60,233 bases of DNA from a virus (taxonomy: Duplodnaviria; Caudoviricetes), in IMG/VR virus record IMGVR_UViG_3300009428_000008, positions 1 to 60,233 of that record; one strand, 5' to 3'. Shown here piece after piece: positions 3,127 through 6,951 of this stretch (the stretch's first letter is position 1; each line of letters begins with the position of its first letter). The notes beneath the pieces were generated by a model. It searched no databases and was not told where the DNA came from. It worked only from the letters and a program-made list of their open reading frames with translations. Made by a program: the position numbers and the translations under genes.

Positions 3127-4023
3127 ATGAATTTAGGATACGCTTGCATCAACACTGCACTAAGTGCCAACAAAATTATGACAAATCGTACAATGCGTCG
3201 AAAAACATTCGATGCCCAAGGTATTGATTATGTCTCGGATCTAGCATTACTTAATGTTAAAGATCTTAAAACTATTGTTCAATGGAACAATGAAATGAAA
3301 ATTAAATTATTTAGATTATCTAGTCAAATATTTCCATGGTCTGATGAGTATGATGTTAAAACTCTTAAAGATTATAAGGAAATATCTAAAATAATGTTAG
3401 AGGTAGGTAGAATTGCTAAAGATGGAGGTCAACGTCTTACCATGCACCCAGGTCCTTATAATTGCTTAGCATCACCAACACAGAAGGTAGTCGATAAAAC
3501 TGTTCGTGAATTAAATTTCCATAGCGAACAATTCAATATGATGGGATATGATCCTTCCCCTTACAATAAAATTAACATTCATGTTGGAGGCGCATATGGT
3601 GATAAAAAATTAACATTGGCGCGTTTTGTGCGGAATTTTAGTTTATTGAGTAACGACGCTAAAAAACGCTTAGTTATTGAAAATGATGACAGTCCCAACG
3701 AATATTCTGTTAAAGATTTATTTGATGGTATTTTCCAAAATATAGGTATTCCAATTACATTTGATTATTTCCACCATAAATTTAATACTGGTGATCTTAC
3801 TGAAGAGCAAGCTTTAAAAATGGCATCTATTACATGGCCTGAGGGAATTGCTCAATGTTGTCATTATTCTGAAAGTAGAAGGAAAGAAATGTTAGATGAA
3901 TCCATAAGACCTCAAGCCCACTCAGATTTAATTTATGAAAAGATTCAAACTTATGGACTTGAACCTGATATTGTTATTGAAGCTAAAATGAAAGAACAAG
4001 CAATTTTCAAAAGACCAATATAA
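3127..4023 (+). CDS. uvsE: UV damage repair endonuclease UvsE/UvdE
   Basis: LGYACIN, FRLSS, RLTMHPG, INIHVGG, RLVIENDD, FDYFHH, HYSES, AHSD, IEAKMKE. Confidence 0.95.
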   Translation: MNLGYACINTALSANKIMTNRTMRRKTFDAQGIDYVSDLALLNVKDLKTIVQWNNEMKIKLFRLSSQIFPWSDEYDVKTLKDYKEISKIMLEVGRIAKDGGQRLTMHPGPYNCLASPTQKVVDKTVRELNFHSEQFNMMGYDPSPYNKINIHVGGAYGDKKLTLARFVRNFSLLSNDAKKRLVIENDDSPNEYSVKDLFDGIFQNIGIPITFDYFHHKFNTGDLTEEQALKMASITWPEGIAQCCHYSESRRKEMLDESIRPQAHSDLIYEKIQTYGLEPDIVIEAKMKEQAIFKRPI

Positions 4024-4461: not shown

Positions 4462-4550
4462 GCCGCTGTGGTGGAATTGGTAGACACGAGGGACTTAAAA
4501 TCCCTTGGACAGATATGTCCGTGACGGTTCGAGCCCGTCCAGCGGTACCA
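4462..4550 (+). tRNA. tRNA-Leu(UAA), CCA encoded
   Basis: Acceptor GCCGCTG/CAGCGGT, D-loop GGAATTGGTAGAC, anticodon arm AGGGA-CTTAAAA-TCCCT, long variable arm, GGTTCGAGCCC T-arm, 3' ACCA. Confidence 0.95.
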
Positions 4551-4575
4551 ACCCCCAAAATGTTGTTTGACTTAC

Positions 4576-4649
4576 GGACCAATAGCTCAGATGGATAGAG
4601 CATCGCCCTTCTAAGGCGACGGTCAAAGGTTCGAGTCCTTTTTGGTTCA
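4576..4649 (+). tRNA. tRNA-Arg(UCU)
   Basis: Acceptor GGACCAA/TTGGTTC, D-arm GCTC-AGATGGATA-GAGC, anticodon arm TCGCC-CTTCTAA-GGCGA, T-arm AAAGG-TTCGAGT-CCTTT. Confidence 0.93.
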
Positions 4650-4655
4650 CTACAC

Positions 4656-4732
4656 AGGTATGTATCTCCTCAAGCTTATATCTTGTAGAAAGAGTAATTG
4701 GTTACATAAGAGTTCGAGTCTCTTCTTACCTA
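4656..4732 (+). ncRNA. tRNA-like RNA with non-canonical arm order (UAU loop)
   Basis: Acceptor AGGTATG/CTTACCT; perfect T-arm AAGAG-TTCGAGT-CTCTT; hairpin CAAG-CTTATAT-CTTG directly after the acceptor; D-loop-like GTAA-TTGG-TTAC after that hairpin. Confidence 0.6.
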
Positions 4733-4747
4733 CATCTACACACTACA

Positions 4748-4782
4748 TGCGTTTTAAGCGCAATTTTATGCGTTTTAACGCA
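4748..4782. repeat. tandem pair of imperfect palindromes TGCGTTTTAA(G)CGCA
   Basis: Copies at 4748-4762 and 4769-4782, 21 bp apart. Confidence 0.7.
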
Positions 4783-4861
4783 CCAACCCCCCACGATCAC
4801 CACAATCATCCACTATAGTATTTAACAATATTGTACGTGGATTTTTTTATTTATAGATTAT

Positions 4862-4890
4862 TTGGATTATTAGTATTTATAACATATATT
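4862..4890 (+). promoter_or_regulatory. early promoter variant
   Basis: TTGG(4862)-N17-CATATATT(4883). Confidence 0.5.
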
Positions 4891-4920
4891 ACATGGTTTA
4901 AACAATTAATTTTATAATAA

Positions 4921-5103
4921 ATGGGACACTACGAAGATGTTATTTATTTTGTATATGAAGAAGTTGAAAGGTTAGGATTAAAAGATGAATTTTCTAAAGA
5001 AATGAAGAAGATGAATAATCAAACCAAACATAAATATAAAAGCATGAATGAAAAGTATGAGTATGCTCTTCATAAAATTAAATATGGGGAGAAATATAAA
5101 TAA
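4921..5103 (+). CDS. hypothetical protein
   Basis: 60-aa ORF, TAATG coupling to the next gene. Confidence 0.6.
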   Translation: MGHYEDVIYFVYEEVERLGLKDEFSKEMKKMNNQTKHKYKSMNEKYEYALHKIKYGEKYK

Positions 5104-6667: not shown

Positions 6668-6951
6668 TTTCATCAACTACAATAGTTATAACATTACTAG
6701 TAATAGCAGTTTTAATATTATTATTCACTACTTGGAATTTACTTAGAAAAAATGAATCTTCCGAAGATATAGTTGTTGGGTATCTTCAGTATTTAGATCA
6801 AATTTCAAGAGTAATAGAAGCATCAGATGAAAAATTAAAAAAAATAGATATTAAAGGTTCATTTTCATCAGATGATGAGGTAGGTTTTTTCTTTAAGCAA
6901 ATCAAACAAATCCAAGATATTCTTAATGAATTTAAATTAAAAAAATTATAG
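6664..6951 (+). CDS. single-TM membrane protein
   Basis: N-terminal hydrophobic helix; ATGA overlap with the HD gene. Confidence 0.7.
   Translation: MISSTTIVITLLVIAVLILLFTTWNLLRKNESSEDIVVGYLQYLDQISRVIEASDEKLKKIDIKGSFSSDDEVGFFFKQIKQIQDILNEFKLKKL

Follow-up and report, generated by a model that had tools for sequence, protein, structure and literature searches.

In canonical bacterial and phage tRNA-Ile (Rfam RF00005; isoacceptors GAU, CAU-lysidine and the rare UAU), a 7-bp acceptor stem with A73, a 5-bp T stem with G53-C61 and a TTCRA T loop, and a 7-nt anticodon loop with U33, A37 and an NAU anticodon are found together with U8, A14, R15-Y48, G18-G19 and A21, and the D arm forms a hairpin between position 9 and the anticodon stem. 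Departures from this plan are known. In D-armless mitochondrial tRNAs (for example, mammalian mt-tRNA-Ser(AGY) and nematode mt-tRNAs), the D stem and D loop are lost, a short connector joins the acceptor and anticodon stems, and the molecules are described as flexible (PMC7609411). In tRNA-Sec and in the allo-tRNAs found in bacteria and their phages by metagenome mining, with 8/4 or 9/3 acceptor/T branches, the stem lengths change but the cloverleaf order is kept, and UAU is one of the predominant allo-tRNA anticodons (PMC5389517). In class II tRNAs, a long variable arm leads into the T stem. In the permuted tRNA genes of the red alga Cyanidioschyzon merolae, the 3′ half appears to precede the 5′ half, with processing restoring a normal cloverleaf.

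The element described here lies at positions 4656-4732 (+) of a 60,233-nt stretch of phage DNA (hereafter the window; IMG/VR record IMGVR_UViG_3300009428_000008, positions 1 to 60,233). It is a real, conserved phage gene for a tRNA-like RNA with an isoleucine anticodon, in which a D-stem-like helix wraps around the anticodon arm instead of closing the D loop, so that standard tRNA finders miss it. The features are as follows.

4462..4650 (+), neighboring canonical tRNA-Leu(UAA) (4462-4550) and tRNA-Arg(UCU) (4576-4650); the element starts 5 nt after tRNA-Arg
4656..4662 (+), acceptor stem, 5′ strand (AGGUAUG), pairing with 4725-4731, with U4661.U4726 mismatched
4663..4664 (+), U-A, equivalent to U8 and A9 of canonical tRNA
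4665..4668 (+), S1 (UCUC), first strand of the D-stem-like helix; 4666-4668 pair with 4692-4694, and U4665.U4695 is a conserved non-standard pair
4669..4670 (+), C and U between S1 and the anticodon stem; by inference, C is equivalent to position 26, and U4670 faces U4686 (27.43 equivalent)
4671..4685 (+), anticodon arm, stem CAAG/CUUG and loop CUUAUAU, with U33 at 4676, anticodon UAU at 4677-4679 and A37 at 4680
4686..4691 (+), linker U-A-GAAA between the anticodon stem and S2, equivalent to the variable region
4692..4695 (+), S2 (GAGU), second strand of the D-stem-like helix
4696..4704 (+), D-loop-like single strand AAUUGGUUA, read as A14, R15, two variable positions, G18, G19, U, one variable position, A21
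4705..4707 (+), C-A-U joining the D-loop-like strand to the T stem; U4707 is the position-48 equivalent and partners A4697
4708..4724 (+), T arm, stem AAGAG/CUCUU (perfect) and loop UUCGAGU
4725..4733 (+), acceptor stem, 3′ strand (4725-4731), discriminator A4732 and a conserved C4733; CCA is not encoded (ACAU follows the stem)
4748..4849 (+), hairpins after the cluster: TGCGTTTTAAGCGCA (4748-4762), found in a consensus scan and terminator-like, with a near-repeat at about 4770-4783, and ATCCAC...GTGGAT plus T7 at 4808-4849, these latter read from the sequence; a role as terminators is inferred

Every feature listed in the original prediction is present in the sequence, including the absence of a hairpin between 4664 and the anticodon-like arm and the presence of GTAA-TTGG-TTAC (4694-4705). 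With ARAGORN, only tRNA-Leu(taa) and tRNA-Arg(tct) are found (Rfam scores of 56.1 and 68.7 bits). The relaxed, intron and mitochondrial modes give no call in register with the element; a tRNA-Ser(cga) call at the 80% threshold (4684-4771) uses the T loop as anticodon loop and is treated as spurious. Rfam gives no tRNA hit there, even at E<=10 on 421 nt, but only a chance snoRNA match (E=1.2). In the family at large, ARAGORN overlaps 4 of 345 instances, and 7 of 21 other members tested pass the RF00005 gathering threshold (29 bits), all marginally (29.5-35.4 bits, against 36-74 bits for canonical tRNAs in the same loci).

Homologs are numerous. The family comprises 207 distinct 78-nt sequences, with 346 instances in 333 loci plus the window, in IMG/VR contigs, metagenomes, a few MAG contigs and cultured Streptomyces phages. 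It is conserved across phages of Streptomyces and Microbacterium, a crAss-like virus, marine phages and gut metagenomes; in one Erysipelotrichaceae MAG locus, a PHROG scan gave a single endolysin-like hit, inconclusive as to a prophage. No indels occur, although the collecting pattern fixed the spacing. Likewise, because members were collected with sequence patterns, conservation of the fixed columns (33-36, 40-42, 45-47, 49-52, 57-62) is partly by construction. An exact 24-nt T-arm/acceptor pattern gave 0 hits in IMG/VR, since the stems vary too much. In a blastn search, the element of the window alone gave no match, but other family members did match Streptomyces phages. A covariance model separates family members (85.9-106.7 bits) from ordinary tRNAs (28.4 bits or less) with nothing in between.

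Compensatory changes in 150 representative sequences support four helices: the acceptor stem (double changes in 7 of 7 pairs), the T stem (4 of 5, with G53-C61, alignment pair 57-65, invariant in 150 of 150), the anticodon stem (4 of 4, 99.2% paired) and the D-stem-like helix 4666-4668/4692-4694, which was not seen in the original prediction. In the last, the three pairs each show 28-64 double changes and are 99% paired (11-39: CG 102, AU 37, UA 8, GC 2, other 1; 12-38: CG 83, UA 39, GC 23, AU 2, UG 2, other 1; 13-37: CG 121, GC 24, AU 2, UA 2, UG 1). Scans that required S2 to differ from GAG returned members whose S1 had changed to match (for example, TCCC/GGGT 52, TACC/GGTT 31, TCGG/CCGT 17, TTCC/GGAT 7); these scans fixed only the S2 side, so the matching changes in S1 are a free observation. 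Overall, 93.3% of 3150 cells are paired and 1063 carry double changes, whereas partners slid by 1-3 columns give 38-48% paired, and 0 of 500 shuffles reach the observed covariation score (0.883 against 0.213). RNAalifold, given no structure, returns the same four helices. The U.U at the sixth acceptor pair of the window is shared by 25 of 150 sequences.

On the other hand, the thermodynamics of the single sequence do not favor the fold: for the window, the proposed structure is at -9.0 kcal/mol against an MFE of -11.8, the MFE breaks the T arm, and the z-score of 0.42 is no better than shuffles. This, and the failure of tRNA finders, would fit a decayed pseudogene or a chance resemblance, but that reading is refuted by the homologs with compensatory changes and the clear separation of model scores.

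Two details of the original prediction are not supported. The GTAA/TTAC hairpin, which had been placed in the variable-arm position, has pairs broken in 48 and 61 of 150 sequences with no double changes, and the alternative ATGTATC/GTTACAT pairing has only 59.9% of cells paired. The D-loop-like segment is instead a single strand that follows the D-stem-like helix. Its variable columns (43, 44 and 48) match the variable D-loop positions 16, 17 and 20a. The purine at 4697 covaries with the pyrimidine at 4707, like the canonical 15-48 pair (pair 42-52: AU 109, GC 32, GU 3, other 6 of 150; in the 207 distinct sequences, AT 161, GC 36, AC 6, GT 4). T8 and A9 are invariant in an alignment that includes members found with patterns that left these columns free. 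In another alignment, C14 (column 14) is invariant and T15 (column 15) nearly so. Columns 15/31 are U/U in 200 of the 207 distinct sequences.

The anticodons are TAT in 143, GAT in 44 and CAT in 18 of the 207 distinct members, with 2 others. Two IMG/VR scans for members with position 35 not A, or position 36 not U, found 0; the two odd members, CCU and UAC, fall outside that pattern. U33 is present in 206 of 207, A37 in 207 of 207, A73 in 207 of 207 and C74 in 206 of 207 (the columns of A73 and C74 were not fixed by any scan pattern). The NAU anticodon, A37 and A73, which probably act as IleRS determinants, are present in the window. The pair C4-G69, probably an element for E. coli IleRS, is not: the window has U4-A69, and the family CG 74, GC 52, AU 17, UA 4 and UG 3 of 150. 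CCA is encoded in 26 of 206 distinct members and not in the other 180. In Streptomyces phages Mildred21 and EGole, the member lies directly after a tRNA nucleotidyltransferase gene.

A tRNA-like RNA with another role (a regulator, a primer, or a handle for processing enzymes or RNA-binding proteins, with the acceptor/T minihelix only recruiting RNase P and the CCA-adding enzyme) could be suggested by this location, by a Ro-like RNA-binding protein encoded in Mildred21, and by the linker GAAA and the C-A before position 48, which have no assigned role. GAAA was present in every family hit of the scan that left it free, although a second subfamily has 8-22 extra bases in this segment (with a possible extra UGCR/UGCA pairing). 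However, that role seems unlikely. The loop keeps C32, U33, A37 and almost only NAU triplets while its stem changes freely, which is the pattern that an anticodon read by IleRS and the ribosome would show; the Ro-like gene lies about 7 kb away in Mildred21, and Pfam/PHROG scans of 15 window ORFs gave no Ro match.

The genomic context is that of rare-codon tRNAs. The phage has 30.9% G+C, and TTA makes up 68% of Leu codons, AGA 68% of Arg codons and ATA 43% of Ile codons (550 of 1289 in 54 ORFs), which confirms the heavy use of ATA claimed originally. tRNA-Arg(tct) is the nearest neighbor in 88 of 161 loci (within 300 nt upstream in 63 and downstream in 25). In 62 loci with at least 10 canonical tRNAs, family members and canonical tRNA-Ile genes tend to carry complementary anticodons. 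With a UAU member, canonical tRNA-Ile(tat) occurs in 1 of 34 loci and Ile(gat) in 18 of 34; with a GAU member, canonical tat occurs in 6 of 29 and gat in 5 of 29 (Fisher p = 0.042 and 0.0042). The loci are pieces of at most 15 kb from related phages, so these tests overstate independence. In 30 of the 62 loci there is no canonical Ile(gat/tat) at all.

Some phages are redundant, however: Mildred21 carries canonical tRNA-Ile(tat) and tRNA-Ile(gat) as well as a GAU member, and 6 of 62 loci have a canonical tRNA with the same anticodon. This could point to a mimic not used in decoding, either a decoy or sponge for host tRNA-targeting defenses (anticodon nucleases or other tRNA-cleaving or tRNA-modifying effectors), or a nuclease-resistant stand-in whose odd core escapes recognition. 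Mildred21 also encodes an RNA ligase and a polynucleotide kinase, a gene pair that in T4 probably acts in tRNA repair, and the strict conservation of the unusual core could reflect selection for being different from host tRNA. But a pure decoy would not need A73, a 12-bp acceptor/T stack, G53-C61, the T loop, U8, A14, G18-G19 and the 15-48-like covariation all together, and both the complementarity with canonical isoacceptors and the clustering with rare-codon tRNAs in an A+T-rich phage fit decoding. In the absence of RNA or charging data, the decoy is not excluded but is unlikely; a nuclease-resistant and still functional tRNA would be compatible with the reading preferred below.

The original proposal of a topologically rearranged AUA-reading tRNA, or a decoy, is thus supported, although the rearrangement differs from the one drawn. 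The best reading (probability about 0.7, with no sequencing run listed for the stretch on record as RNA, and thus expression, ends, CCA and charging untested) is a gene for a working isoleucine tRNA, with anticodon UAU reading AUA, and with non-canonical strand connectivity. The order along the chain is acceptor 5′ strand, U8-A9, one strand of a 3-4 bp D-stem-like helix, the complete anticodon arm, a short variable-region-like linker, the other D-stem strand, the D-loop-like strand, C-A-Y48, the T arm, and the acceptor 3′ strand with A73 and C74. The secondary structure is therefore a three-way junction, not a cloverleaf, and the D-stem-like helix and the anticodon stem form one long arm of about the canonical length. 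By inference, the D-loop-like GG docks on the T loop, R15 pairs with Y48 and U8 with A14, so that the usual L-shape is rebuilt; the three new backbone joins (9 to 22, variable region to 10, 21 to 48) connect residues that are neighbors in canonical tRNA. It is also inferred that the RNA is transcribed with tRNA-Leu(UAA) and tRNA-Arg(UCU), trimmed at both ends, given CCA by a nucleotidyltransferase, charged by host IleRS through the anticodon, A37 and A73, and that it supplies AUA decoding to an A+T-rich phage.

Compared with canonical tRNA-Ile, the core residues are present but in a different order: only 6 nt (UCUCCU) separate A9 from the anticodon stem, the D-stem strands flank the anticodon arm, and the D-loop residues come just before the T arm. 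Compared with D-armless mitochondrial tRNAs, a covarying D-stem-like helix and a full D-loop-like strand (A-R-N-N-G-G-U-N-A) are kept, placed elsewhere in the chain. Compared with allo-tRNAs, the 7/5 branch is kept and the connectivity changes. As in class II tRNAs, the segment after the anticodon stem can be expanded (in the second subfamily), but in this family it leads into a D-stem strand. Compared with the permuted genes of C. merolae, the termini are normal and an internal block is displaced. A precursor rearranged by cutting and rejoining into a canonical cloverleaf, for which the RNA ligase of some carrier phages might be invoked, is very unlikely: both acceptor strands are already at the ends, two cuts and two ligations would be needed to move an internal block, no splice-like motif is conserved, and the covariation of the helix enclosing the anticodon arm shows selection on the unrearranged fold. 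No description of this architecture was found in the literature (including PMC7609411, PMC5389517 and PMC13092985), as far as could be searched without subscription journals and supplementary files, among which the supplementary figures of PMC5389517 on phage tRNA clusters may be relevant.

It is somewhat more likely than not that the element is a natural topological isomer of tRNA, fully functional, charged by IleRS and active on the ribosome, which has spread among phages of at least Actinomycetota, Bacteroidota-associated and marine hosts while staying mostly invisible to tRNA annotation. Its persistence may be due to escape from host factors that recognize the normal D-arm/anticodon-arm geometry. 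Members occur in cultured Streptomyces BE-cluster phages; in GenBank records of Streptomyces phages the member can be unannotated, and one record labels it tRNA-Leu. Studies of phage tRNA sets and codon use therefore undercount isoleucine tRNAs. If the RNA works as a tRNA, cloverleaf connectivity is not required for tRNA function; the same tertiary core could then be wired in a second way, and evolution has done so and kept it in hundreds of phages, which bears on how tRNA structure evolved and on the design of orthogonal tRNA scaffolds.

The element at 4656-4732 (+) of the window reads, from 5′ to 3′, AGGUAUG UA UCUC CU CAAG CUUAUAU CUUG UAGAAA GAGU AAUUGGUUA CAU AAGAG UUCGAGU CUCUU CUUACCU A. 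The acceptor pairing (with one U.U), the perfect T arm, the hairpin with the loop CUUAUAU, and the GTAA-TTGG-TTAC segment are all present at the coordinates of the original prediction. The window is a whole IMG/VR virus record with an estimated completeness of 37% and a G+C content of 30.9%. The features of the window that concern us are the following:

441-1274, ORF with a DUF932 match (5.5e-33)
1264-1665, cytidylyltransferase-like ORF (2.7e-14), overlapping the preceding ORF by 11 nt on the same strand
3127-4023, ORF of a UvdE-type UV-damage endonuclease (Pfam UvdE, 2.7e-56), upstream of the tRNA cluster
4462-4550, tRNA-Leu(taa)
4576-4650, tRNA-Arg(tct)
4656-4732 (+), the tRNA-like element
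4748-4762, small hairpin TGCGTTTTAAGCGCA, flagged terminator-like
about 4770-4783, small hairpin TGCGTTTTAACGCA, near-identical to the preceding one
4808-4849, longer hairpin ATCCAC...GTGGAT plus T7

In the 60,233-nt window, ARAGORN reports only tRNA-Leu(taa) and tRNA-Arg(tct), and its relaxed, intron, and mitochondrial modes give no call in register with the element. Rfam finds the same two tRNAs at the gathering threshold, and nothing tRNA-like on the element even at E<=10 in a 421-nt search. The single-sequence fold (-11.8 kcal/mol, z=0.42) is no better than shuffles, 129 of 200 of which fold at least as well. The hairpins that follow the element directly occur in the same arrangement in the locus L010.

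The UvdE-like ORF has relatives in 167 of 173 candidate IMG/VR stretches (at 44-96% identity), of which 80 loci were kept. Nine of these loci hold the element next to Leu(taa)-Arg(tct). In some relatives of the window's phage, however, the slot after Leu(taa)-Arg(tct) holds a canonical tRNA with the anticodon CAT (loci L030, at 4851-4926, and L045, at 6703-6778), and in others (L016, L018, L020, L046) it is empty. The third position of the cluster is a variable slot. In the copies of the element, the acceptor and T stems already show compensatory changes, whereas the interior is almost invariant. This yielded 78 distinct 78-nt members without indels. A covariance model built on them scores members at 85.9-106.7 bits and ordinary tRNAs at 28.4 bits or less, with nothing in between.

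In that first set, the segments UCUC (columns 10-13, strand S1) and GAGU (columns 37-40, strand S2) never varied, but the search motifs had fixed them. We therefore scanned with patterns anchored on the D-loop-like and T-loop residues that required column 38 not to be A, or column 39 not to be G. In the hits, the unconstrained segment at columns 10-13 had changed to match, and types other than those tabulated also occur.

Table. Combinations of S1 and S2 and the number of distinct members carrying each.
S1/S2: distinct members
TCTC/GAGT: 73
TCCC/GGGT: 52
TACC/GGTT: 31
TCGG/CCGT: 17
TTCC/GGAT: 7
TAGG/CCTT: 4
TCCG/CGGT: 4
AACC/GGTT: 3

The pairs were then counted in 150 representatives chosen to differ at 3 or more positions (150 of 160 such representatives, from 207 distinct sequences).

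Table. Pair types between S1 and S2 in 150 representatives.
Columns: pair types
11-39: CG 102, AU 37, UA 8, GC 2, other 1
12-38: CG 83, UA 39, GC 23, AU 2, UG 2, other 1
13-37: CG 121, GC 24, AU 2, UA 2, UG 1
10-40: U.U in 147, A-U in 3

For the whole structure, 93.3% of 3150 cells are paired, compared with 59.0% in shuffles and 38-48% when partners are slid by 1-3 columns. The covariation score is 0.883 (against 0.213), and 0 of 500 shuffles reach it. RNAalifold, given no structure, predicts the same four helices and leaves columns 40-52 unpaired. A D-stem-like helix (4666-4668 with 4692-4694 in the window) thus encloses the anticodon arm. A pseudogene is excluded, and a rearrangement at the RNA level into a cloverleaf is unlikely, because the rearranged fold itself is under selection.

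On the other hand, two pairings put forward in the original prediction are rejected. The GUAA/UUAC hairpin (columns 39-42 with 47-50) is broken in 48 of 150 sequences at pair 39-50 and in 61 of 150 at pair 41-48, without any double change. In the alternative AUGUAUC/GUUACAU pairing, only 59.9% of cells are paired, with pair 10-47 broken in 146 of 150. Instead, the segment AAUUGGUUA behaves like a D loop. The positions that vary are columns 43, 44, and 48, which match the D-loop positions 16, 17, and 20a that vary in canonical tRNAs, while A14, G18, G19, and A/G21 are kept (these columns were fixed by the later patterns, but they were free in an earlier scan and conserved in its family hits). 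Interestingly, column 42 (R) covaries with column 52 (Y), the base just before the T stem (AU 109, GC 32, GU 3, other 6 of 150), which is the signature of the canonical 15-48 pair.

At the anticodon position, the 207 distinct members carry TAT (143), GAT (44), CAT (18), CCT (1), and TAC (1). Two members (L450:1355-1432 and L317:4-81, locus and position) thus have non-Ile triplets, CCU (Arg AGG) and UAC (Val GUA), and they may be anticodon-shifted or decaying copies. Two scans of IMG/VR for members with position 35 not A, or position 36 not U, found nothing. Among the columns free of pattern constraint, C32 and U33 are each kept in 206 of 207, A37 and A73 in 207 of 207, and C74 in 206 of 207. 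CCA is encoded in only 26 of 206 distinct members. This is the pattern expected of isoleucine tRNAs, with CAU being either the lysidine-type Ile2 or Met.

Members are also found in cultured phages. With three members from other loci (not the window's own copy), blastn matched 80-83 records each, namely 77-79 Streptomyces phages of about 130 kb, 2 Microbacterium phages, 1 Kehishuvirus, and 1 rodent-faeces virus, plus uncultured records. Cultured Streptomyces BE-cluster phages carry a GAU member directly after a tRNA nucleotidyltransferase gene, as in Mildred21 (73703-73780; L456:9001-9078) and EGole (L458:595-671), and some of these phages have a second copy near 91 kb. In the records inspected, the match is unannotated everywhere except in phage EGole, where it is labeled tRNA-Leu (UUA). 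In one genome per prokaryote species, 6 of 37 pattern hits are true members, all on MAG contigs. MAG contigs of 400 kb (Erysipelotrichaceae; L263:2617-2693 and 3550-3626) and 217 kb (Saprospiraceae; L260:4943-5019) hold members inside tRNA arrays, with a CAU and a GAU member 0.9 kb apart in L263. Phage tRNA arrays that also hold family members gave Rfam hits to a group I intron (96 bits; L310:176-404), a tRNA-Sec-like gene (54.2 bits; L386:12285-12374), and a tmRNA (57.9 bits; L321:1455-1816).

A metagenome scan with a variable gap found a second subfamily of 82-96 nt (L459:266-347, L460:1847-1930, L461:10075-10160, L478:1250-1345). It has the same order of parts and a 5-bp anticodon stem, but 8-22 extra bases between the anticodon stem and S2 replace the GAAA linker of the main family, so that the linker behaves as a variable region. 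In one group these bases form a GCG-UUU-CGC mini-hairpin, and a UGCR/UGCA pairing across the D-loop-like strand is possible. Standard tools seldom detect the family: ARAGORN overlaps 4 of 345 instances, three of them called as long tRNA-Ile(tat), and the tRNA model of Rfam passes 7 of 21 members in 15 loci at 29.5-35.4 bits, just above its threshold of 29. A tRNA with this connectivity was found neither in full-text searches, which did not reach non-open journals or supplementary files, nor in a review of non-canonical tRNAs (PMC7609411), the allo-tRNA paper (PMC5389517), and a 2026 survey of 4-bp anticodon stems (PMC13092985). What we consider new is the connectivity, in a molecule of an otherwise known kind.

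The three-gene cluster of the window reads UUA, AGA, and (by inference) AUA. In 54 ORFs (18,256 codons), TTA makes up 68% of Leu codons, AGA 68% of Arg codons, and ATA 43% of Ile codons, or about 30 per 1000 codons. Across 161 loci of the first set, tRNA-Arg(tct) lies within 300 nt upstream in 63 and downstream in 25. Among the loci with at least 10 canonical tRNAs (n=62), 30 have no canonical Ile(gat/tat), 21 have only the other Ile anticodon, 6 have the same anticodon, and 5 hold only CAT or other members. Canonical tat accompanies a UAU member in 1 of 34 loci but a GAU member in 6 of 29, whereas canonical gat accompanies a UAU member in 18 of 34 loci but a GAU member in 5 of 29 (Fisher p = 0.042 and 0.0042). 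These loci are partial and phylogenetically related, and the p-values are indicative only. Some phages are redundant: Mildred21 also has canonical tRNA-Ile(tat) and tRNA-Ile(gat), together with an RNA ligase, a polynucleotide kinase, and a Ro-like protein. Such redundancy suggests a decoy or nuclease-evading mimic, which cannot be excluded without RNA data. That reading does not explain, however, why every element needed for charging and for binding of the elongation factor is kept.

The family thus presents a three-way junction (acceptor, long D-stem-plus-anticodon arm, and T arm), a D-loop-like joining strand, and a 15-48-like pair. From what is established on tRNA structure, we infer that S2 followed by A14...A21 corresponds to the canonical positions 10-21, and that S1 corresponds to positions 22-25 and leads, as usual, through position 26 into the anticodon stem. 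The invariant GAAA and C-A are not accounted for in this scheme. The three changed backbone joins (9 to 22, variable region to 10, and 21 to 48) would link residues that lie next to each other in the canonical L-shape. The long arm has 3-4 pairs, an internal loop, and then 4-5 pairs, which is close to the canonical length of D stem plus anticodon stem. The RNA could therefore present the anticodon and the CCA end at the normal distance, with processing, CCA addition, charging by IleRS, and AUA decoding all inferred.
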